This document shows, one piece after another, positions 5,846 to 47,270 of a stretch of DNA of 64,000 bases. The stretch covers positions 61,457 to 125,456 of the forward strand of contig DASYTJ010000012.1 in NCBI GenBank assembly GCA_036002325.1, given 5' to 3'. The notes beneath the pieces were generated by a model. That model made no database searches and had not been told where the DNA came from. It saw only the letters and a list, made by a program, of their open reading frames with translations. Each line of letters opens with the position of its first letter. Within the stretch, counting starts at the first letter, position 1. This stretch comes from Thermoanaerobaculia bacterium. GTDB taxonomy: Bacteria; Acidobacteriota; Thermoanaerobaculia; Multivoradales; UBA5704. The position numbers were made by a program, and so were the translations under genes.

Positions 5846-5907
5846 AGCAGTATTGAGACCGCGCACCGGAAAAGACTGAGCCGCGGGCCGGCCGCCGGGG
5901 CTCGCTG

Positions 5908-6020
5908 CTAGCTCTTATCCCCGCCGCCCTTTGCCAACAGCCTCGCCCTCCCGCCGCGCCAGCTCCACCGTTGCGGCTTCCTTCCTGGCGGCTTCGCAGA
6001 ACATCCGCTTGCCCGCCTGC
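5908..6020. repeat. Direct repeat copy A (about 110 bp) flanking methyltransferase gene
   Basis: about 85% identical to 6785-6900, with a perfect ~55-nt core (cgccgcgccagctccaccgttgcggcttccttcctggcggcttcgcagaa). Confidence 0.8.
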
Positions 6021-15760: not shown

Positions 15761-16342
15761 ATGGGCGAAGGAGAAAGGAGGGCAGGAGGCGTGCAAGCCG
15801 CTGCTTACGAGAAACCGCTCGACGCCCCCCCGGAAGCCCTGGAAGCGCTCTTCCGGGAGAATCACGGGGCGGTTTACCGCGCCGCGTACCGGATCACCGG
15901 CGACGCCATGGACGCGGAGGACGTGCTGCAAACCGTTTTCACCCGACTCCTGCGGCGAGAGGAGCAGCCGGATCTCTCGGAGAGCGCGGGGAGCTACCTC
16001 CACCGGGCGGCGGTCAACGCCGCTCTCGACCTGATGCGGCGGCGCAAGCGGTCGCGCAGGGTCGACCTGGAGGAGGTCGGCGAGAGCCTCGTGGACCGGT
16101 CGGATCCGGGTCCTGAGCGCGCCCGGGGCAACCGCGAGCTGAAAACGCGGTTGCGGGAGGCGCTGTCGCGCCTCTCCCCCCGTCAGGCCGAGATCTTCAC
16201 CCTGCGTTACCTCGCAGGGATGGGCAACCTGGAGATCGCCCGCCTGCTCGGCGCCTCCCAGACCTCCATCGCCGTACTACTGCATCGTGCGCGGCACCGG
16301 CTCCAGAAGGAGCTCGGGCCGCTTGAAGGAGAACTGTCATGA
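15761..16342 (+). CDS. ECF (sigma-70 family, group 4) RNA polymerase sigma factor
   Basis: 193 aa; region 2 (VYRAAYRITGDAMDAEDVLQTVFTRL) and region 4 (RQAEIFTLRYLAGMGNLEIARLLGASQTSIAVLLHRARHRL). Confidence 0.8.
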   Translation: MGEGERRAGGVQAAAYEKPLDAPPEALEALFRENHGAVYRAAYRITGDAMDAEDVLQTVFTRLLRREEQPDLSESAGSYLHRAAVNAALDLMRRRKRSRRVDLEEVGESLVDRSDPGPERARGNRELKTRLREALSRLSPRQAEIFTLRYLAGMGNLEIARLLGASQTSIAVLLHRARHRLQKELGPLEGELS

Positions 16343-18978
16343 GCCTGTTCAAGAAGCACGACGACCTTCTGGACGACGCGATCGGCCAGGTGGCGAACGA
16401 GCCCATCGACCCTCGCCAGGTCGAAGCGGCGGCGGCCCGTGTCTGGGCGCGGCTGGCGCAGGGCGGAGCTGCCGAAACCGCCGCGCCGGCGGTGGCCGAA
16501 GCCGCTCCGATCTCCGGCAGCCTGCACGGCTGCGAGGACTTCCAGTCCCTGATCCCCGCCTATCTGCGGGGCGAGCTGTCCCCGGCGCGCGCGCTGCTCG
16601 TCGAGGACCATACGCGGAGCTGCGTGCCCTGCCGCCGGGCGCTCCGTGAGGCCCGTGAGGGCCACAAGGTGGCGGCCGCGCGGCCGGCGGCGGCGAAGTC
16701 TTGGAGCCGCGACCGCCGGGTGTGGATGCCGCTCGCCGCGGCTCTGGCCGTGGTCCTCGGCTACGGCCTGCTGGTGGTGATTCAGGAGATGCTGGCCGGC
16801 GGTGCCCGCATGGCCCGCATCGAATCCGTGGCAGGCACGATCTACCGGGTCGCCGCCGATTCCAGCCGGCCGTTGGCCGCCGGCGAGACGATCGACGAGG
16901 GCGAGGAGATCCGCACGGCGAAAGGCTCGACGGCGGTGGTGCGCATGGCGGACGGCTCGCTGATCGAGATGGGCGAGCGGGCGAGCTTCGCGCTCGACGC
17001 CGGCCGCAAGGGCAACACCATCGAGCTGGCGCGGGGCAAGGTGATCGTCCAGGCCGCCAAGCAGCGCCGCCGGCACCTGTTCGTGGCCACCCGCGACGCG
17101 CTGGTCTCGGTGACCGGCACGATCTTCTCCGTCAACTCCGGCACCAAGGGCTCGCGCGTGTCGGTGATCGAGGGCGAGGTGCGGGTCAAGCAGGCGCGGA
17201 CCGATGCGATCCTCCACCCGGGCGACCAGGTGACGACGCACACCAGCGTCGAGACCGTGCCGATCCGCGAGGAGATCGCCTGGAGCCGCAACGCCAAGCA
17301 GTACGACGAGCTCCTGGCCGAGCTGACCGCCCTGGGCAAGGAGATCGACGCGCGGGTGGAGCGGCCGGGACTGCGCTACTCGACGCGGCTGCTGGATCTC
17401 GCCCCTGAAGGGACGACGGTCTGGATCGCGCTGCCGAACCTGTCGCGCAGCCTCGACGAGACGCAGCGCATTCTCGATCAGAAGATCGCCGAGAGCCCGT
17501 CGCTCGCCCAGTGGTGGAGCGAGACGCTGCGCTCGACCGGCAACGAGCAGAAGTTCCACGACATGATCGAGAAGATCGGCGCCCTCGGCCGCTATCTGGG
17601 CGACGAGGTGGCCGTGGCCATGGCGGCCGGCGGCAACGACGACTGTGAGCCCGTGCTGCTGGCCGAAGTGACGAATGAGGCGTCCTTCCGCGCCACCCTC
17701 GAGCAGGAGCTCGCGGGTATCAACGCCAAAGAAGGCAAGCCGGTGCGGATCGTGGACGATCTCGCCACCGCTCCCGAGGGCGCGGGCATGCTGCTGTGGA
17801 TCCACGACGGTCTGCTCATCGCCTCGCCCGATATCGCCGAGCTGCGCGAGGTGGCGGCGATCACCGCCGGCGGCTCCAACCCGTTCACCGGCTCCAGCTT
17901 CCATGGCCGCATCGCCCAGGATTACCGCGACGGCGCCGGCTGGCTGTTCGCGGCCGATCTCCACACGCTGGTGCGCAAGGGGCAGGAGAAGGAATCTTCC
18001 GAGTCGCAGCAGATGGCCGAGAAGCTGGGCGTGCTCGACCTCGACCACTTCATCATCGACCGGCGGGAGATCGACGGCCGGGCCGAGACCCGCGCCGCCT
18101 TGACCTTCGACCAGCCGCGGCGGGGGATCGCCTCCTGGATCGCCGCGCCGGCGCCGATGGGCAGCTTGAGCTTCTTCTCACCTGACGCAAACCTTGCGGC
18201 GGCTTTCGTCGTAAAGAGCCCTGTGACGATTCTCGACGAGTTGCTCGCCATCAATCCCGAGTTCGCCCGCGAGCTGGCGGAAGCGCAGGCCAAGCACGGC
18301 TTCGATCTGCGCAGCGATCTCGCGGCGCCTCTGGGCGGCGAGATCGCCGTCGGCGTCGACGGGCCGGTGCTGCCCATGCCCTCCTGGAAGCTGGTGGCCG
18401 AGGTGTACGATCCGGCGCGCTTGCAGCAGACGTTCGAGCGGGCGGTTTCCCGCCTCAACGACGAGCTGCGGGCTGAAGGCAAGGCCGGGGTTCAGATCAC
18501 CAACGAGCAGAGCGGTGGCCGCACCTTCTACGCCGTCCAGGGGACCGAGCCGAAGGTCGAGCTCCATTACGTCTTCGAGGACGGCTACCTGCTGGCCGGC
18601 CCCAGCCGGGCGCTGCTCGAGCGGTCGCTCCAGCAGCGGGACTCGCGCGTGACGCTGGCCACCACGGCCAAGTTCCGCGACCTCCTGGGTCCGGACGGTC
18701 AGGTGAACGTCTCGGCCCTGGTCTACCACAACGTGGCGCCGCTGGCGAAATCCGCCTCCAAGGTGCTGCCGGAAGCCGCCACCCATCCGCGCGGCGGCCC
18801 CGACATCGGCAAGTTCCTGGCGTCGCAGGGGCCGACGCTCTACTACGCCTACGCCGAGCCGGACCGCATCGTCTTCGCCGGCAGCAACCAGAACCCTCTG
18901 GGCCTGAACCTCGGCACGCTGGCCGGCCTCGGCGGCATCGCGGGGTTGGCGAACTCGGGGCACGAGGAGGCCCATTAG
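16339..18978 (+). CDS. Anti-sigma factor: N-terminal zinc-finger (HxxxCxxC), TM helix, FecR-like periplasmic domain plus about 550-aa C-terminal extension
   Basis: 879 aa; [17 protein letters not shown]-like motif, TM ([20 protein letters not shown]), FecR-like beta segment ([20 protein letters not shown]...GKVIVQA); 4-nt overlap with sigma gene. Confidence 0.65.
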
Positions 18979-41315: not shown

Positions 41316-41789
41316 ATGGCCGAGAGAGTCAAACCCTATAAGTCCGCGATCAACTACTGGCTGCTCGCCACCGATCCGGACGAATACAGCTACTACGATC
41401 TGGAGCGCGACACTGCCACGGTCTGGGACGGCGTCACCGATTACGAGGATCTGAAGACCCTGCGGGACGTCGAGCCCGACGAGGAGGCGCTCATTTTCCA
41501 CGCGGGCACGGAGCTCGCAATCGTCGGCATCGCCCGCATAACCTCGGATCCCTATCCGAACCCTCAGGGCACGAGCCCCGACGAAGTCGTGGTCGACGTC
41601 GTCCCCGAGCGGCGTCTGGAACGACCGTTACCGCTCGTCGAGTTCGAGGATCTTCCCGAGTTCGAGGACTTCGACCTGGTGGCAAACCCCGACCTCTCCG
41701 TCGTGCCCGTCACGCCGGAGCTCTGGAACCGGCTTCTCGAGCTGAGCGGGGCCGCGCTGGCGCTGTCCACACAGGAGGATCAGGAGTAG
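41316..41789 (+). CDS. EVE (PUA-like) domain protein
   Basis: 157 aa; NYWLLATDPDEYSYYDL...IARITSDPYP pattern of EVE domain. Confidence 0.65.
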   Translation: MAERVKPYKSAINYWLLATDPDEYSYYDLERDTATVWDGVTDYEDLKTLRDVEPDEEALIFHAGTELAIVGIARITSDPYPNPQGTSPDEVVVDVVPERRLERPLPLVEFEDLPEFEDFDLVANPDLSVVPVTPELWNRLLELSGAALALSTQEDQE

Positions 41790-41825: not shown

Positions 41826-42235
41826 ACAAGCTTCAGGCGAGCCGATGCAAGCTTGTGGCGAGCCGATGCAAGCCTGAGGTGACGCGACTGAAGCTTGAAG
41901 TGGCGCAATTGAAGGCGCAAGTGACGCGACGACTGCTTGAAGTGGCGCGGCTGAAGCTTGCGGCGAGCGGGTCGAAGCTTCCAGCGAGGCGGCGGAAGCT
42001 TGCGGGATTTCCGGCAAGCTTCAGCCGCGACGGCGCAAGCTTCAGGCGAGTGGGCACAAGTTTGCGGCGTGACGCGCGAAGCTTGCGGTGACCCGGTTGC
42101 AGCTTGCCGGGAGACGCCTGAAGCTTCTGGCGAGCCGATTGAAGCTGCAAACGAAGCGCCTGAAGCTTGCGGGATCTCCGGCAAGCTTGAACCGCAGCGC
42201 CGCAAGCTTTCTCCCGAGCCGCCTGAAGCTTGCCG
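41826..42235. repeat. Tandem array of about 20 imperfect 21-bp repeats each beginning AAGCTT (HindIII palindrome)
   Basis: Units such as caAGCTTcaggcgagccgatg, caAGCTTgtggcgagccgatg, AAGCTTgcggcgagcgggtcg, AAGCTTcaggcgagtgggcac; occupies whole convergent intergenic gap between EVE gene and esterase gene; generates frame-shifting KL-heptad pseudo-ORFs on both strands. Confidence 0.85.
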
Positions 42236-42236
42236 C

Positions 42237-42986
42237 TCACCACCCCATCCAGTCGATCGCGTACGGCAGCATCTTGCGCCACCACGGCCAATCGTGGTTC
42301 ACGTCGTGGCCCCAGATGTCGAGGAAGTGGGGAATCCCCTTGCTGAACAGGAGATCCGAGAGCCGCCGCGAGGCGTGCGGCGCCTCGTAGGCGCCCTGGC
42401 CGGTGAGGATGTGGATCTTGCACGCCGTCTGCAGCAGATGAAGCTGCTGGCCCGCCAGGTTCGGCAGATACCAGGCGGGGTTGTTGAAATAGCAATTGTC
42501 GTCGCTGTAGCCGTGCAGATAGTCCGGCTCCAGATCGTAGAAGCCGCTCATGGCGATGACGGCGTCGAAGAGGTCCGGCCGTCGAAAAAGGATATTGGCC
42601 GCGTGGAAGGCGCCGAAGCTGGCGCCGCAGGTGGCGATGCGGAGGTCGGGCGTCTGGCAGGCCTGGCGGATGAAGGGGACGACCTCCTCCTCCACGTAAC
42701 GGGCGTAGAGGGCCTGCCGGCGCGCCTGCTCGGGCACCGGCAGGCTGCGGTCCATCCAGGCCTGCTGGTTGATGCTGTTGATCGAGAAGATCCGCACCCG
42801 GCCGGCGTCGAGAGCCTGGTCGGCCGCCCCGATCAGATGGAAGCGCTCGTTCTCCAGGAAGTCCGCGGCGGCCGTGGGAAAAAGCAGCAGCGGGTGACCC
42901 CAGTGGCCGTAGGAGACGATGGGCATGTCCTGCCCCAGGATCGGGCTGTGCCAGCCCGCAATCTCGCGCCGATCGCCATACCCCAT
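42237..42986 (-). CDS. Esterase family alpha/beta hydrolase (putative esterase PF00756-like)
   Basis: Start at MGYGDRREIAGWHSP with RBS; GASFGAFHAANILF (G-x-S-x-G nucleophile elbow variant), C-terminal His. Confidence 0.6.
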   Translation of the reverse strand: MGYGDRREIAGWHSPILGQDMPIVSYGHWGHPLLLFPTAAADFLENERFHLIGAADQALDAGRVRIFSINSINQQAWMDRSLPVPEQARRQALYARYVEEEVVPFIRQACQTPDLRIATCGASFGAFHAANILFRRPDLFDAVIAMSGFYDLEPDYLHGYSDDNCYFNNPAWYLPNLAGQQLHLLQTACKIHILTGQGAYEAPHASRRLSDLLFSKGIPHFLDIWGHDVNHDWPWWRKMLPYAIDWMGW

Positions 42987-43099
42987 GGTCCTGGCCTCCT
43001 GCGGCTGAGCCCCGCGGAAAGAAATTGCGCCGGAGGATAACACTCTTGCTTGGCGAGGGCTGCCGGTGTCACAGTCCAACTTCCAGAGAGACCGGAGCC

Positions 43100-43867
43100 A
43101 TGGAGAGAATCCCCGTCGTCGCGAACGGCCGCGAGGTGTCCCACCTCGCCGTGCGCTTCGATCCGCCTGCGAAAGGTCAGGGAACCACAGTCCTCTACCT
43201 CCACGGATTTGGCTCCGAGCAATCGGGGGAGAAGGCCGAGTTCTTTCGCCGGCAGGCGCTCGCGGCAGGCTTCGGATTCTGCTCCTTCGACTTCCAAGGC
43301 CACGGACTCTCCGGCGGCGAGATCGGCTCCCTCACCCTGACGCGCAACTTGGAGGACGTCCGCCGCGTCCACGATTTCCTGCGCGCCCGCGGGCAGGAGC
43401 GGCTCGTCCTCGTCGGCTCGTCGATGGGCGGCGGCACGGCGCTCTGGTACTCGGCGCTCCATCCCGAGGACATCGTCGCCGGCCTGCACATCGCTCCGGC
43501 GCTGGAATTGGAGCGCGGCCTCCTCGCCTGGGCGGGGCCGGAGAGGGAGCGCATCTGGCAGGAAACGGGAACCATCCATTTTGAGAACGAGTTCGTCTCC
43601 TGCGAGCTCGGCTGGTCGCTGATCGATGACCTGCGCGCCCATCCTGTCGAGGCGCTGCTCGCCCATTACCGCACTCCCTGCCTTCTGCTCCAAGGCAAGC
43701 AGGACCCCTCGGTCCCCTGGCGCGGCGTCGCCGAGTTTGCCACGCGCTGTACTTTTCAGGAGATCGAGCTGCATCTCTTTGCGGACGGCGATCACCGCCT
43801 GACCGACCGCAGGGAGAGACTCTGGGAGCTGATGATGGAGTTCCTGCAGGGGCGGGGATTGATCTAG
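43100..43867 (+). CDS. Alpha/beta hydrolase
   Basis: Start MERIPVV; HGFGSEQSG, GSSMGGGTALWY (GxSxG), C-terminal DGDHRL (catalytic His). Confidence 0.7.
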   Translation: MERIPVVANGREVSHLAVRFDPPAKGQGTTVLYLHGFGSEQSGEKAEFFRRQALAAGFGFCSFDFQGHGLSGGEIGSLTLTRNLEDVRRVHDFLRARGQERLVLVGSSMGGGTALWYSALHPEDIVAGLHIAPALELERGLLAWAGPERERIWQETGTIHFENEFVSCELGWSLIDDLRAHPVEALLAHYRTPCLLLQGKQDPSVPWRGVAEFATRCTFQEIELHLFADGDHRLTDRRERLWELMMEFLQGRGLI

Positions 43868-43915
43868 CATGGGGGCGTCAGGGTTTGCGATGAAACTTCA
43901 CCCCCACGACGCCCC

Positions 43916-43948
43916 TGCTCCGAGAGCTCCTGGATTCTCCGCGAAAGC
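43916..43948. repeat. 33-nt perfect direct repeat copy 1 (tgctccgagagctcctggattctccgcgaaagc)
   Basis: Identical copy at 44196-44228; lower-GC non-coding-looking region. Confidence 0.8.
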
Positions 43949-44195
43949 GATTGAAGCCCGTCTTGGAAACTCATCTGGTTGGTAAGGCGCTTGTCAACTT
44001 GTCGATAGCTCTTCGTTGGGAGATTATTCGACGCAGTACGCGAGCCTCGCGTAGCAGCTACCGCCTCGCATAATTTGGTCGAGTTCCTTGCGACCGCCGG
44101 CCATGTCTTGTTGGCCCAGAAGCTACTCGCTCAGGTTCGTCCCTTCTACCAGTTGTTCCGAGAGCCACAGTTCCAATGCCGACGTTTGTGGGCGG

Positions 44196-44228
44196 TGCTC
44201 CGAGAGCTCCTGGATTCTCCGCGAAAGC
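44196..44228. repeat. 33-nt perfect direct repeat copy 2
   Basis: Identical to 43916-43948. Confidence 0.8.
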
Positions 44229-44707
44229 CGCGATCTGGCCTCCGCCGTGCTCGAGTCATGCTGATCTCGCGGTGCAGAAGGGCTTGGGGTCACATCTCTC
44301 TTCAAAGCAACTGGGAAGCTTAGCCGAATCGCCGCGACACGGCAGATATAGATAAAAGCAAATATTGATGCCGGGTTGCCGGCGGGCGCGGCTTTTGTAC
44401 TGTATATTATCGGCGCCGACAACTTCCGGGCGCGGGAAGGTGGGAGGGCAGGGACAGACTACGGATGTGACGTTACCGGGAGCGAGGCATACGTGACGAC
44501 GCGGGATAGATTCTTCTCCGTGAAATGCCAGCCGGGGTAGGGAATCGATCTAGCGTAGACTAGCCTCGCCCAAGCCGGACTCCTAAAGCAGGCGAGGATC
44601 CCCTCGATATCGGATCCTCTGTTCGCCAGAGTGCGCTGCTCACACGAGGCAATCCTCGCGTGGCCGGGGTGGCCGCCGGGGTGGTTGCCCAAGGAGGGAG
44701 AGAGTTC

Positions 44708-44953
44708 ATGTCCCGTAAGATTCGATTCGCCGTCGCCTTGACCCTCGCAGTACTCACCTGCGGAAGCCTGGGGGCTCTGCCCCTGGGCTCCCCCATCGCC
44801 TCTGCCGAGAGAGGTGACTTTCTCACCGCGATTGTGGAGTGGATCGTCTCCGTTTTCGTGCCGGAGCAGCCCTCGGAAGGTGCCCCCAAGCCTGCACAGC
44901 TCAAGGACAACGGCACGATGGACCCCAACGGCGGAACGGGCGGCGGTCACTAG
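44708..44953 (+). CDS. Small secreted peptide precursor (81 aa) of unknown function
   Basis: Strong RBS AAGGAGGGAG 7 nt upstream of ATG; signal peptide MSRKIRFAVALTLAVLTCGSLGALPLGSPIASA; mature about 48 aa with amphipathic stretch and Gly-rich C-terminus NGGTGGGH; lower GC than genome. Confidence 0.4.
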   Translation: MSRKIRFAVALTLAVLTCGSLGALPLGSPIASAERGDFLTAIVEWIVSVFVPEQPSEGAPKPAQLKDNGTMDPNGGTGGGH

Positions 44954-45037
44954 TCCGCTGCGTGGACGGGAGCACTAATGTGCTCCCGCCTTGTCCCGTT
45001 TTACCCTCCTCAAGCAACCATGTTTAGTAGGGAGGGC

Positions 45038-46435
45038 ATGCCGTATTCTCTAGTTCTGGGAGGGCCTAGAGTGAAGCTTCACCCCCATGATTTGTTGCTG
45101 CAGGAGTTCGCCGCCACCTTTTCGGAAGATCGCGCGGACTGCCTCGATCACCTCATTCGGTGCCCCCGCTGCCGGAAGCAGTTCAGATCACTGCTTCACT
45201 TGCAGCTGAACCCGCTTGCCGAAAACGTCGTCCCTCTCTGGCGCCAGCAGCCTGGGCCTGTAGACTACGAGCCGGGCTTGGCCAGGGTCTCTCGAGATCT
45301 CAAGCATCTTCCTTCTGCCTACGAGAAAGAGAGGGTGGAAGCGCTAGGGCTCTTTTCGGAGCTGTCGTCTTACCACCCCAGCAAGCAGTCGCTCATGGTG
45401 CGGAACTTTGAGCGGTTCCATACCTGGGGTCTCTGCGAGCTCCTTTTGCAGCGCACTCTGGAGCAGAACTTCCAGAATCCCTCTCTCGGCGAGAGTTTCG
45501 CCCTGCTGGCTCTCGAGATCTCAGATTACCTCGCAGACACCTACTATGGCGCCGAAGCGATCGAAGACCTAAGAGCGCGAGCTTGGGCTTACGTGGCAAA
45601 TGCGCGCCGGCTAAAGGCTGATCTGCGGGGAGCCGAAGAGGCGTTTGCCCTGGCGTTTGCCTGCCTCAGGCGAGGAACTCTGCACCCGATGGAGAAGGCT
45701 GTACTTCTCGATCTTCAGGCTTCACTCCTGAGAGCGCAACGGCGCTTCGGCAAGTCGTTGTCCCTTCTTCGACGTGCCGCGTCGATCTTCCGGAAACTTG
45801 GTGAGAAGCACCGCGCCGGCCGAGTTTTGATCAACATGTCCACGGTCTTCTACGTCGCAGGTGAGCCCAAGAAAGCTATCCCTCTGATCTATGAGGCGCT
45901 CGAGCTGATTGATCCGGCCAGGGAGCCACGCCTGCTGCTGAGCGTTTGGCATAATCTCATCTACAATCTCACCGAAATCGGCCAATTCATGGAAGCACAG
46001 CGGCTTTTCGTGAGGGCCAGGCCGCTTTACCGGCAATTCCCTGAGCCCTGGGCACAGAATCGTAGCGCGTGGGCTGAAGGCCGAATCGCTCGCGGCTTGG
46101 GTTTGCGGGAGCAGGCGGAAGATCTCTTCCTCGCGGCGCGTGCCGGCTTTCTTGCCGCGAAGGCTCCTTACGAGATGGCCCATGTCTCTCTTGAGCTCGC
46201 CTCTCTCTACGCGGAGGAAGGCCGGACGGCTGAGCTGAAGCAGCTCGCCGAGGAGATGATGCCCATCTTCTCCTCCCGTCAGATCCACCGTGAGGCGCTC
46301 GCGGCCCTCGCTTTCTGGAAGCAGGCGGTCGAGACGGAGAAGGCGGGACTGGAACTTGTAACGGGAGTGGCGTCCTTCCTCAAACGGGCACAGCACGATC
46401 CCGAGCTGCGATTCGAGCGGCCCAAAGAATCGTAG
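45038..46435 (+). CDS. TPR-repeat regulator with N-terminal HxxxCxxC zinc-finger (ZAS-like)
   Basis: RBS GGGAGGG upstream of ATG 45038 (alternative GTG 45071 at conserved VKLHPHD); LDHLIRCPRCRKQF zinc motif; multiple TPR-like helical repeats; lower GC (about 57%). Confidence 0.55.
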   Translation: MPYSLVLGGPRVKLHPHDLLLQEFAATFSEDRADCLDHLIRCPRCRKQFRSLLHLQLNPLAENVVPLWRQQPGPVDYEPGLARVSRDLKHLPSAYEKERVEALGLFSELSSYHPSKQSLMVRNFERFHTWGLCELLLQRTLEQNFQNPSLGESFALLALEISDYLADTYYGAEAIEDLRARAWAYVANARRLKADLRGAEEAFALAFACLRRGTLHPMEKAVLLDLQASLLRAQRRFGKSLSLLRRAASIFRKLGEKHRAGRVLINMSTVFYVAGEPKKAIPLIYEALELIDPAREPRLLLSVWHNLIYNLTEIGQFMEAQRLFVRARPLYRQFPEPWAQNRSAWAEGRIARGLGLREQAEDLFLAARAGFLAAKAPYEMAHVSLELASLYAEEGRTAELKQLAEEMMPIFSSRQIHREALAALAFWKQAVETEKAGLELVTGVASFLKRAQHDPELRFERPKES

Positions 46436-46466
46436 CGCCAATCTGCCAATAGAGGAAAAGCGGCTG

Positions 46467-46488
46467 GGGGCGCAGCATGCTGCGCCCC
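46467..46488. terminator. REP-like palindrome variant GGGGCGCAGCATGCTGCGCCCC
   Basis: Between convergent TPR gene (ends 46435) and cupredoxin-like gene (ends 46500). Confidence 0.5.
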
Positions 46489-46499
46489 ACTTAAGAGGT

Positions 46500-47270
46500 T
46501 TACGCCTTCGGCTTGAAGTCGAAGGTGACCGTCGCGGTCTGGTTGGGGGCGATTGTCACTTCCTGGGTCTGGGTGCCCAGCTTCTCGTGCCAGGCCTCGA
46601 GGGTGTACTTGCCGGGAGGTAGCTTGTCGATCGAGAAGGAGCCGTCCTCGCCGCTGACCGCGTAGTACGGATGCGGCACCACGCCGACCCAGGCGGTCAT
46701 CCAGGGGTGGACGTCGCACTTGATGTGAACCGCCACCTCCGGCTTGTCGAAGACCTTGTCGATCGGCGGCAGACCCTGCGGCTGCGCCTGGTTGAACTCC
46801 TGGTTCGTCGTCGGCAAGGCATGGACGTTGTGCAGCGTCGCGTCGGTGTTCTTGACCGACAGCGTCTGGCCCGTCTGCATGCCCTGGACGCGCGGCGTAT
46901 ATTGGCAGCCGACCTGGTCGATCTCCTTCTTCTCCGCCGGCGCCGGGAAGGTTTTCCCCTCGAGGCCGGTCTTGACGTAGACGAAGACGTTGCCCAGCTT
47001 GCCGTCCTTGACAGCGATCTCGTTGGTGTCGACCGGGGTCGGGTGCAGGCCGGCGCAGATCGGATCGGCGTTCATGGCGATCGGCGTGTCGGTGTCCGGC
47101 CCCGCGTAGGTGACCGTACCGCTGATGCCGCCGGCATCGGCCGGCGCCGCAGCCGGCGCGCTGGCCGCCGGGGCCTCCGTGGTCTGCTCCTCATCCTTGG
47201 CTCCCCCGTGGCAACCTGCCAGCACCGGCAGCGCGCAGAGCGCCAGAATCCACAATCTGTTCCTGCTCAT
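46500..47270 (-). CDS. Cupredoxin-like (type-1 copper site candidate) lipoprotein; carboxypeptidase-regulatory-like beta-sandwich
   Basis: 256 aa; RBS AAGGAGG; lipobox LAGC; candidate Cu ligands HNVH ... C-DV-H-PW-M (C-x2-H-x2-M); last gene of cytochrome bc operon; ORF track merges it into a 1297-aa artefactual ORF. Confidence 0.5.
   Translation of the reverse strand: MSRNRLWILALCALPVLAGCHGGAKDEEQTTEAPAASAPAAAPADAGGISGTVTYAGPDTDTPIAMNADPICAGLHPTPVDTNEIAVKDGKLGNVFVYVKTGLEGKTFPAPAEKKEIDQVGCQYTPRVQGMQTGQTLSVKNTDATLHNVHALPTTNQEFNQAQPQGLPPIDKVFDKPEVAVHIKCDVHPWMTAWVGVVPHPYYAVSGEDGSFSIDKLPPGKYTLEAWHEKLGTQTQEVTIAPNQTATVTFDFKPKA

Follow-up and report, generated by a model that had tools for sequence, protein, structure and literature searches.

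Sigma factors of the extracytoplasmic function (ECF) type are normally kept under the control of membrane-spanning anti-sigma factors. According to a large reclassification of the ECF family, soluble anti-sigma variants that have escaped detection probably exist (PMC7826278). Another mode of control, the reading of genetically encoded peptide signals by cytoplasmic proteins built of tetratricopeptide repeats (TPRs), is regarded as a speciality of the Firmicutes (PMC10075063), and the signature that defines such RRNPP systems consists of a propeptide of 10-100 aa, a Sec signal, a receptor of 250-500 aa, TPRs in this receptor and adjacency of the two genes (Bernard et al. 2023, PMC10075063). This report deals with a pair of genes that touches on both types of system. 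It lies in a stretch of 64,000 nucleotides, called the window in the following, from the genome of a Thermoanaerobaculia bacterium (GenBank assembly GCA_036002325.1, contig DASYTJ010000012.1, positions 61,457 to 125,456 of the forward strand), and encodes a small peptide predicted to be exported and, 117 bp further downstream, a protein that combines a zinc anti-sigma (ZAS)-like head with a TPR body.

The reading that we prefer, and to which we assign about an even chance of being correct, is that the window pair is a sigma-less member of a module made of a peptide, an ECF sigma factor (lost in many copies) and a soluble anti-sigma factor, and that the peptide would act as the ligand of the TPR protein. 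The next sections discuss the evidence for this reading, together with the rival explanations; the coordinates of all features are collected in Table 1.

The Gene Pair and Its Relatives

Both open reading frames (ORFs) were found where the original prediction had placed them, and the smaller one, of 81 codons, is indeed preceded by a strong Shine-Dalgarno (SD) sequence; in GenBank it is the hypothetical protein VGX68_02770 of a Thermoanaerobaculia metagenome-assembled genome (MAG). When the upstream regions of the related loci are aligned, SD sites of the GGAGAGGAG type precede the start codon of the peptide in nearly all of them. The larger protein had been assigned 466 aa, counted from an ATG at position 45038. 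This start had to be revised, because all the homologues begin with [MVL]-K/R-x-H-P and the NCBI model P0001, which is 100% identical to the window protein, is 454 aa long; the two observations agree on the GTG at 45071.

The pair had also been described as an orphan, a label that no longer applies: the peptide and ZAS-TPR family is large, restricted to Thermoanaerobaculia and undescribed. More than 1,378 relatives of the TPR protein came up in a word-index search, the best 120 of which are 58-81% identical to it and of equal length. In an exhaustive profile search among 1.84 billion representatives, each standing for a cluster defined at 50% identity, the number of matching clusters was 2,906 with an E-value limit of 1e-30 and 6,409 with a limit of 1e-10; almost all of these are 440-465 aa long and aligned from end to end. 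Every source that names an organism is a MAG of Thermoanaerobaculia, Acidobacteriota or Holophagales, the plasmid and phage collections contained no match for the TPR protein, and a full-text search of the literature found no description of such a family.

The pairing of the peptide gene with the TPR gene is far beyond chance. The small protein has 13 database homologues, several of which share their contigs with TPR homologues, and a hidden Markov model (HMM) built from these 13 sequences was run on the six-frame translations of 79 related loci, obtained from a scan of one genome per species. In almost all of these loci, a peptide ORF on the same strand ends 100-400 bp upstream of the TPR start. 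A stricter extraction, based on a pattern, recovered the peptide in 65 loci; the HMM covered most of the others, and a few TPR genes lie at the edge of their contig. The TPR proteins fall into 12 paralogue groups at about 55% identity, and the linkage spans all 12, with TPR identity down to about 44%. The original prediction had staked itself on the peptide gene being conserved beside TPR homologues elsewhere, and this is what was found in nearly all 79 loci and in all paralogue groups. Furthermore, several genomes contribute two or three of the 79 loci, and the family is therefore multi-copy.

The neighbouring genes were compared by gene calling based on the G+C content of third codon positions (GC3), single-linkage clustering of six-frame ORFs being uninformative in DNA of high G+C content. 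Apart from the peptide gene, which is the only constant neighbour, the genes around the TPR gene are housekeeping genes specific to each group. In the ortholog group of the window they encode an abhydrolase, a CarboxypepD_reg protein and an alternative-complex-III operon, and the pair keeps its place between the abhydrolase gene and that for CarboxypepD_reg; the other groups have an S9 peptidase, aroA, rhodanese, SPFH and lpxH genes, and others. Since only the peptide gene is constant, the pair can be described as an autonomous two-gene module that was duplicated and scattered. Its two genes have stayed together in the course of many duplications, as do the genes of cognate partners that interact.

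One of these neighbours deserves mention on its own. In group 11 (locus L024, 5718-7850, and 11 other loci) a gene for a secreted enzyme, similar to S9 prolyl-oligopeptidases and dipeptidyl-peptidases, lies on the strand of the TPR gene, about 470 bp downstream of it. It is conceivable that this S9 enzyme processes the peptide, the conserved motif of which has a D-P bond, and plain synteny is an equally good explanation.

The Zinc Head and the TPR Body

The H-x3-C-x2-C zinc motif noted at the outset is present as H27-x3-C31-x2-C34 and is accompanied by H4; these four residues, the proposed zinc ligands, are invariant in 25 diverse paralogues. The likeness of this region to zinc anti-sigma factors was also borne out. 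When a profile of residues 1-95 was compared with the sequences of the PDB, the best match was ChrR (E = 0.004, residues 2-77 aligned to 4-80), and this alignment puts H4 and the H27-x3-C31-x2-C34 motif onto the zinc ligands of ChrR; RsiW (E = 0.035), DdvA (0.036), a copper-ATPase (0.19) and RslA (0.24) followed. The Pfam model zf-HC2 matched the N-termini of the paralogues that were tested below its threshold (E = 0.07-0.23), and one family member, P0206, passes it with 29.6 bits against a cut-off of 22.2.

Two members of the family have an unusual architecture. P0206 is 916 aa long, and its whole TPR body is tandemly duplicated in one ORF behind the zf-HC2 head. P0259 (1,090 aa, on an 8.3-kb contig) is apparently fused to a helix-turn-helix (HTH) domain of the XRE type (HTH_31/HTH_3, residues 627-679), with further TPRs behind it; either gene calling has fused two neighbours here, or the protein is a genuine HTH-TPR partner beside the module.

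The TPR-like repeats of the original prediction were recognized by two approaches. Pfam reports TPR_12 as the only match of the window protein (43.6 bits, cut-off 30.1), and AlphaFold2 predicts with confidence an all-helical superhelix for residues ~80-400. The confidence is low for the first 45 residues, modeled as three short helices, for the disordered linker at residues 43-66 and for the C-terminal 50 residues. The protein should be cytoplasmic and soluble, because it has no hydrophobic segment (Kyte-Doolittle maximum of 0.86 over 19 residues).

The structural neighbours of the TPR model are LGN and Pins at ranks 1 and 2 (scores of 23.8 and 23.6), NprR with NprX at rank 3 (20.3), Rap105 with its peptide at rank 4 (20.3), RapH at rank 5 (19.8), RapI at rank 6 (19.6), the Rap protein of pLS20 at rank 8 (19.2), MalT domain III at rank 13 (18.0), AimR at rank 23 (17.2) and PlcR at rank 27 (16.7). 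The bacterial structures nearest to the model are peptide receptors, NprR and Rap, and the predicted fold is of the type that encloses a peptide, with the reservation that such solenoids generally look alike. A profile of the full-length protein against the PDB sequences found only generic TPR proteins (Pins, kinesin light chain, SNAP) and no RRNPP receptor, and a scan of the TPR protein with NCBIfam found no RRNPP family, the sole hit being a weak match to the TPRs of AfsR.

Sigma-Linked Relatives and Sigma Remnants

The origin of the ZAS-TPR protein can be traced in a sister subfamily, which has an H-x4-C-x2-C motif and a longer linker than the window type; its member P0397 and the window protein share 38% identity over residues 66-452 (E = 7e-74). 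All six loci of this subfamily that were examined contain, in this order, two further ECF sigma genes, a gene of 67-74 aa, an ECF sigma gene (175-197 aa) and the ZAS-TPR gene, with exceptions that concern the leading sigma genes: in L084 one of them is split, with a TPR gene in between, and in L086 a TPR gene comes after the first. The ECF sigma gene before the ZAS-TPR gene shares 4 nt with it in five loci and directly adjoins it in the remaining one, and the sigma proteins of L082 and L084 pass TIGR02937 as well as the Pfam models Sigma70_r2/r4_2. Because the sister ZAS-TPR protein is coupled to an ECF sigma factor in this way, the window protein descends from a genuine anti-sigma factor.

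The product of the 67-74 aa gene combines a signal peptide with a hydrophobic helix, has the C-terminal sequence ...GVRIDPDGNH, ...ISMDPNGGG or ...VMIDGNG and, judged by these sequence features, it is a member of the same peptide family. The full module therefore consists of peptide, ECF sigma factor and soluble ZAS-TPR anti-sigma factor. A consistent sigma partner had originally been thought to point to a plain anti-sigma role and to speak against a peptide receptor. Such a partner does exist in the sister subfamily; the peptide gene is there too, and so the peptide is not explained away. Instead, the presence of a predicted exported peptide in the sigma-linked operon merges the anti-sigma and the peptide ideas.

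A master locus beside metK/ahcY and lptF/G is conserved in Thermoanaerobaculia genomes (six cases are given in Table 1). It contains two to three ECF sigma paralogues in tandem, a single DPNG peptide gene and between one and three ZAS-TPR genes, in the order metK/ahcY - sigma - sigma - peptide - sigma - ZAS-TPR - lptFG. The scattered pairs that have no sigma factor of their own might be served by those of this locus.

Intermediate stages were found as well. An HMM of the sigma factors, built from the sigma-linked loci and run on the 79 loci, detected in six of them an ORF of 85-130 aa between the peptide and TPR genes that has sigma region 2 only (HMM positions 7-74 of 176). Five of the six ORFs overlap the TPR start by the same 17 nt, which suggests that they are real "sigma-2-only" mini-proteins rather than debris. 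The same HMM had no match in the window-type group, and in the 64-kb window its single hit was the unrelated ECF sigma gene at 15761-16342. Queries with E. coli RpoE and with the ECF sigma factor of the window found no sigma gene near the 79 loci, in a search that was too insensitive. Taken in order, the loci form an evolutionary series from sigma-linked through sigma remnant to sigma-less, with the window pair at the end, and the peptide gene is kept at every stage.

That no sigma factor is linked to the window pair had been stated from the beginning, and it holds. The only ECF sigma gene of the 64 kb (15761-16342, + strand; TIGR02937, 115 bits) is 29 kb away and overlaps by 4 nt its own anti-sigma gene (16339-18978, + strand), which encodes an FecR-like protein of 879 aa with an H-x3-C-x2-C motif of the sequence HTRSCVPC and a membrane segment. 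This is an ordinary ZAS arrangement in the window genome.

The Predicted Exported Peptide

The window peptide starts with K/R residues followed by a hydrophobic core (Kyte-Doolittle maximum of 1.91 over 19 residues). By simple rules, K/R, a hydrophobic core of at least 10 residues and an AxA-type site follow each other in 62 of the 65 family peptides, which range from 59 to 106 aa. Cleavage after G22-A23 is more likely than cleavage after A31-S-A33, because the paralogues align at Ala23 with canonical AxA sites (AQA or AYA, each followed by LP), and it would leave a mature part of about 58 aa. The signal peptide of the original prediction is in line with these sequence rules, and the mature part of about 48 aa is replaced by the longer one. 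Two other readings of the peptide were rejected: a lipoprotein, since Cys18 of the apparent lipobox is not conserved and Thr occupies position -1, and a second transmembrane helix, since the stretch in question has only 13-15 residues and its hydropathy falls to 1.1 over 19 residues.

The mature part has two recurrent elements. The first is an amphipathic Trp helix with the pattern FLxAxWxWLxSL, which is kept in most paralogue groups and is missing in L076 and L078, hence not universal. The universal element is the C-terminal motif, with the consensus K-[EA]-G-[SC]-x-[ML]-D-P-[ND]-G and one to three copies per peptide. Glycine is found at position -4 in 71 of the 81 motif copies of the position table, in which the search pattern itself imposes D, P and G. 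The last copy lies at most 3 residues from the C-terminus in 47 of the 65 peptides, many sequences terminating with ...DPNGxH, and the residues that flank the motif differ between paralogue groups. In several groups a pair of cysteines brackets the D-P-N-G turn (C-x3-DPNG-x1-5-C), suggesting a loop closed by a disulfide and hence an extracytoplasmic life of the peptide.

A small exported product with an amphipathic, Trp-rich helix and, in some copies, Cys pairs might also be a Sec-dependent bacteriocin or the precursor of a ribosomally synthesized and post-translationally modified peptide (RiPP), with the TPR protein as its immunity or maturation partner, and the original prediction had mentioned this option. 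It finds no support in the data: no gene for a modifying enzyme, a dedicated transporter or an immunity protein of the membrane is conserved in the neighbourhood, no model of Pfam, NCBIfam or PADLOC matches the peptide family, and the partner is a soluble protein with a zinc domain of the anti-sigma type. Moreover, RiPP precursors are normally devoid of Sec signal peptides. This explanation is barely credible.

In another hypothesis, the TPR protein binds the precursor that has not yet been exported, through the C-terminal motif or the hydrophobic helix, like the chaperones IpgC and SicA. If export slowed down, the accumulating precursor would titrate the anti-sigma-like protein and thereby report export or envelope stress. 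This mechanism would need neither processing nor re-import of the peptide, and the hydrophobic helix is the type of segment that chaperone-like TPR proteins cover. However, the helix is absent in the two loci named above, Sec substrates are normally exported quickly and the Cys pairs suggest that the functional form is oxidised and extracytoplasmic. To our knowledge, there is no experimental precedent for a Sec pre-protein that regulates an anti-sigma factor, and we consider the hypothesis quite unlikely.

Conserved cis-Elements

A G+C-rich hairpin follows the peptide stop codon at what is the terminator position of the family. By strict criteria, a hairpin with a T-tract is found downstream of the peptide stop in 35 of 65 loci, as compared with 11 of 1,300 random control windows, and many further loci have bulged versions of it. 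The hairpin of the window has a weak T-tract and fails the T-tract criterion. The intergenic RNA of the window folds better than shuffled sequences (z = -3.3), and for the post-peptide spacers of the family the z-scores of the minimum free energy did not discriminate them from random windows (median z = -0.1). By its sequence, the element is terminator-like and would be the intrinsic terminator of the family.

Directly past the hairpin, and upstream of the ZAS-TPR gene, lies a bipartite motif. The general pattern TGTC[CA]C-N15-17-G.A[AT]C[CT] has 57 matches on both strands of 1.94 Mb, about 54 of which are located before a TPR gene, and its match at 44992 is the only one in the window. A related pattern, TGTCYY-N15/16-GCGGNAAC, occurs about 95 nt before the ATG of the peptide in five of the six sigma-linked loci. 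The constant spacing and location agree with a promoter that a dedicated sigma factor would recognize, and the motif is taken here as a putative promoter, the alternative being a role at the RNA level. A sigma-54 promoter was also considered for the conserved motifs and was dismissed on inspection, as the spacing does not fit.

In some loci an inverted repeat covers the second box of the bipartite motif (L001, ~5948-5970; L014, ~5856-5880; L060, ~5877-5895). The repeat varies in a compensatory manner by subgroup (ACCACTTC/GAAGTGGT, GCATCCTTA/TAAGGATGC, GCATCT/AGATGC), and its geometry differs in group 11.

The peptide gene has conserved elements of its own. A block with the consensus (A)AAGTGCCACTCTT was recognized by eye in the aligned upstream regions of the 65 loci, in most paralogue groups, and L082 has a similar block, with the second sigma gene on one side and the bipartite motif on the other. 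The block may act as a promoter element, of a second type. Between this block and the start codon, the presumed 5'-untranslated region (5'-UTR) of the peptide mRNA can form a small, G+C-rich hairpin, the best one lying 41-48 nt before the ATG in most loci. The stems vary in a compensatory manner (CGGCC/GGCCG, GGCAGC/GCTGCC, GGCGGCA/TGCCGCC, GTGGCTG/CAGCTAC), the loops often have the form A-N-GG-N (ATGGA, ACAGGA, ATAGGA), and GGA-rich SD sites follow. To judge from the sequences, this pattern recalls binding sites of the CsrA type.

In most window-type loci the peptide gene has an upstream block and a terminator-like hairpin of its own and would thus be a separate transcription unit, and this organization favours a different relationship between the two genes, that of a regulator and its regulated product. 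The TPR protein would sense a cytoplasmic protein, a metabolite or, via its zinc, the redox state; the peptide would be the exported output, able to bind metal or a surface or to act on membranes or other cells, and the adjacency of the genes would result from their duplication as a unit. The Cys pairs at the DPNG turn and the Sec signal likewise point to a folded extracytoplasmic product. ZAS domains can sense without a peptide, as those of RsrA and ChrR do when they respond to redox or singlet-oxygen stress, and it is ChrR that the zinc head resembles. On the other hand, it is hard to explain in this way why the peptide gene is kept in every paralogue group after the loss of the sigma gene. 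A soluble anti-sigma factor without a DNA-binding domain gains nothing from being beside its target gene, and a receptor-like superhelix of 320 residues would be left without a ligand. We regard the regulator-and-product explanation as somewhat unlikely.

Proposed Mechanism

In the preferred reading, the peptide of the sigma-less pair is the ligand of the TPR protein. The chain of events that we infer comprises export and processing of the peptide, its re-import, binding to the TPR protein, binding of a sigma factor in trans and promoter function of the bipartite motif. The 81-aa precursor would be exported and its signal peptide removed, and a fragment with the C-terminal K-x-G-x-x-M-D-P-N-G motif would reach the cytoplasm, as Phr and NprX do, and would sit in the groove of the TPR superhelix. 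Its binding would alter the hold of the ZAS head on a partner, most likely a sigma factor of the ECF type whose gene lies at another place in the genome. Because the peptide would have been exported and re-imported, a soluble anti-sigma factor could in this manner read extracytoplasmic conditions. The many peptide/anti-sigma pairs of one genome would converge on few shared sigma factors, and that sigma factor would use the TGTCCC-N16-GNAACY motif before every TPR gene as its promoter, so that feedback would arise. A convergence of this kind is known from Bacillus, in which many Rap-Phr pairs act on Spo0F and ComA.

Two of the arguments for this reading are the following. First, the zinc ligands and the surrounding residues are invariant in the sigma-less copies, which argues that the ZAS head still binds a partner. 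Second, the peptide gene alone has never parted from the TPR gene, even after sigma loss, which argues that the ligand of the TPR protein derives from the peptide; by analogy with Rap-Phr, the peptide probably supplies it. A more ambitious version, in which Thermoanaerobaculia would have evolved a network of the peptide-pheromone type independently of RRNPP, is put forward tentatively, as rather doubtful. In it, each of several pairs per genome would have a TPR domain that responds to its own re-imported K-x-G-x-x-M-D-P-N-G peptide, and all pairs would act on a small number of common ECF sigma factors from one "master" locus.

Several points weigh against the ligand reading. With regard to the sigma factor, no sigma gene is found within 6 kb of the window copy, nor within this distance in 73 of the 79 loci, so that sigma binding in trans is an assumption. 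With regard to the zinc head, the window protein has no Pfam match to zf-HC2 at E <= 0.1, and the model of its N-terminus is of low confidence. As for the peptide, the D-P-N-G core is near-identical in all paralogues, which would lead to cross-talk unless the flanks give specificity, and a loop closed by cysteines, as the sequences suggest, fits poorly with binding to a cytoplasmic TPR protein. Neither an oligopeptide permease nor a processing protease was found linked to the loci by neighbour calling. Finally, Acidobacteriota have an outer membrane and a Sec-exported peptide reaches only the periplasm, so that signaling from cell to cell would need extra steps.

Other Features of the Locus

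The lower G+C content claimed for the pair was verified: it is 0.58-0.63, compared with 0.65-0.70 in the flanks, and the GC3 is 0.69, compared with 0.83-0.97 in the neighbouring genes. The TPR gene has a GC3 below that of its neighbours in 65 of 72 related loci. Being a trait of the whole family, the low GC3 is therefore no evidence for recent transfer, and a horizontally acquired island was rejected on this ground and because the locus is syntenic in the orthologues.

The gap of 840 bp upstream of the peptide gene is free of genes except for a relic at 44024-44270. With the window protein as the query, tblastn found 42% identity over 57 aa (E = 2e-8), and with 40 other family members as queries the E-value went down to 1.7e-13 and the identity up to 50%. 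As only a fragment matches, this piece is a pseudogene remnant, and by its sequence it looks like a decayed tandem copy of the ZAS-TPR gene.

The relic, 0.8 kb upstream, indicates that family copies do decay at this place, and the degenerate T-tract of the window terminator could be a further sign of it. It might then be asked whether the window pair itself, having lost its sigma gene, has ceased to signal and is turning into a pair of pseudogenes. This is very unlikely, as both ORFs are intact and the sigma-less orthologs are 59-81% identical across many species, with the zinc ligands and more than 100 positions invariant. Conservation extends to the position between the abhydrolase and CarboxypepD_reg genes, to the peptide motif and to the cis-elements.

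Downstream, a palindrome between the convergent TPR and CarboxypepD_reg genes is likely a bidirectional terminator hairpin; a simple terminator scan gave it no score, as there is no T-run. An Rfam scan of 43500-47000 had only two sub-threshold chance matches (46678-46768 and 46455-46495), and a generic promoter and terminator scan of 43800-46600 found nothing. Farther upstream, a degenerate tandem array of 21-nt units (41827-42137, ~15 copies, 61-92% match) gives spurious repetitive ORFs in several frames; it lies between an EVE-domain gene (41316-41789) and an esterase gene (42237-43079, - strand).

Table 1. Coordinates of the features discussed, in the window or, where a locus number is given, in the related locus of that number
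Feature	Position	Strand	Basis or remarks
Relic fragment of a second ZAS-TPR paralogue	44024-44270	+	tblastn; ~ family residues 279-362
Conserved block, consensus (A)AAGTGCCACTCTT (GTGCCACTCTT-like), putative promoter element	44628-44649	+	~90 nt before peptide ATG
5'-UTR hairpin GGCC-GGGGT-GGCC, presumed peptide mRNA	44659-44690	+	Stem comparison
Shine-Dalgarno of peptide gene, AAGGAGGGAGAG	44691-44702	+	Direct sequence reading
Gene of the predicted exported-peptide precursor, 81 aa	44708-44953	+	ORF list; stop codon included
Predicted Sec-type signal peptide, residues 1-23 (MSRKIRFAVALTLAVLTCGSLGA)	44708-44776	+	Hydropathy and family alignment; putative cleavage site
Amphipathic Trp helix, residues 37-52 (DFLTAIVEWIVSVFVP)	44816-44863	+	Family pattern
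C-terminal motif K66-D-N-G-T-M-D-P-N-G75, then tail GTGGGH	44903-44932	+	Motif alignment
Hairpin CGGGAGCAC-TAAT-GTGCTCCCG, 9-bp G+C-rich	44967-44988	+	14 nt past peptide stop; family terminator position
Bipartite motif TGTCCC-N16-GCAACC	44992-45019	+	5' of ZAS-TPR gene, directly past hairpin
Shine-Dalgarno of ZAS-TPR gene, GGGAGGG	45058-45064	+	Direct sequence reading
Zinc-finger/TPR gene, 454 aa	45071-46435	+	GTG start, stop codon included; = NCBI model P0001
ZAS-like, putative zinc-binding domain, residues 1-45; proposed ligands H4, H27, C31, C34	45071-45205	+	Invariance, profile matches
Predicted TPR superhelix, residues ~80-400	45308-46270	+	AlphaFold2
Palindrome GGGGCGCAGCA/TGCTGCGCCCC	46467-46488	.	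Between convergent TPR and CarboxypepD_reg genes; direct reading
Master loci	L082 3656-7728; L083 3212-8016; L084 2738-7380; L085 1411-5779; L086 537-5365; L087 1693-6867		Beside metK/ahcY and lptF/G
Sigma-region-2 ORFs	L022 5748-6017; L045 5760-6017; L052 5631-6017; L053 5691-6017; L063 5751-6017; L072 5396-6001	+	Sigma HMM

Significance

The family joins peptide signaling and ECF anti-sigma control in a poorly studied phylum of soils and sediments, and its gene pair has multiplied into thousands of sequence clusters, mostly detached from a sigma factor. Should the peptide prove to be the ligand, diderm bacteria too would have a form of the peptide sensing known from RRNPP systems, ECF sigma factors would have a new mode of input, and MAGs could be mined for a simple signature, namely a signal peptide and a C-terminal KEGSxMDPNG beside an H-x3-C-x2-C/TPR protein. 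If the network exists as well, it would be the first cytoplasmic peptide-receptor signaling in a diderm phylum other than the Firmicutes and would include the first case of an anti-sigma factor under the control of a genetically encoded peptide. It would further account for the way in which the soluble anti-sigma factor of an ECF sigma factor senses the condition of the envelope or the population. Even with no such role for the peptide, the family is a regulatory module of large size that lacks annotation, with a clear series of stages of sigma loss and with conserved cis-elements.

Comparison with Known Systems

The structures most similar to the TPR model, LGN and Pins, are also its best TPR matches by sequence profile, and they bind extended peptides along their inner groove. 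They are eukaryotic proteins of unrelated function and context, and the likeness is that of generic repeats of the TPR_12 type. A parallel in logic alone, to the hypothesis that the TPR protein binds the unexported precursor, is offered by the TPR class II chaperones of type III secretion (IpgC-MxiE, SicA-InvF) and by the export of FlgM, in which the export of a small partner sets the state of a cytoplasmic regulator; here export would go via Sec, and those chaperones have only ~150 aa.

The resemblance to RRNPP systems proposed in the original prediction holds for their operational signature, all five features of which are found in the window pair (PMC10075063), the Sec signal being a prediction from sequence rules; it does not extend to a sequence relation with any RRNPP receptor. 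As in these systems, the receptor is cytoplasmic and a short motif, sometimes repeated, is located at the C-terminal end of the propeptide. The protein is further like Rap in having no HTH, and its many paralogous pairs could converge on shared targets. In contrast, the effector is a ZAS zinc domain, instead of an HTH or the three-helix bundle of Rap, the peptide gene is upstream of the receptor gene, not downstream, and has a terminator-like hairpin of its own, and the core of the motif is near-invariant between paralogues. The pair comes from a diderm acidobacterium and not from a Firmicute, its plasmids or its phages. Re-import of the peptide and its binding in the groove are proposed for the family by analogy with RRNPP receptors.

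Among the ZAS proteins (ChrR, RsiW, RslA, RsrA, DdvA), ChrR has a similar spacing of the zinc ligands (H6/H31/C35/C38), and the sister subfamily is translationally coupled to a bona fide ECF sigma factor. The window copy and most of its relatives differ in having no adjacent sigma gene. The putative sensor of the family is a TPR superhelix of 320 residues, not a transmembrane, periplasmic or cupin domain, each copy is paired with a small peptide predicted to be exported and several copies occur per genome. The window protein is best filed as a derived, soluble, TPR-bearing kind of ZAS anti-sigma factor, although it has no co-transcribed sigma gene and its own zf-HC2 score is below threshold.

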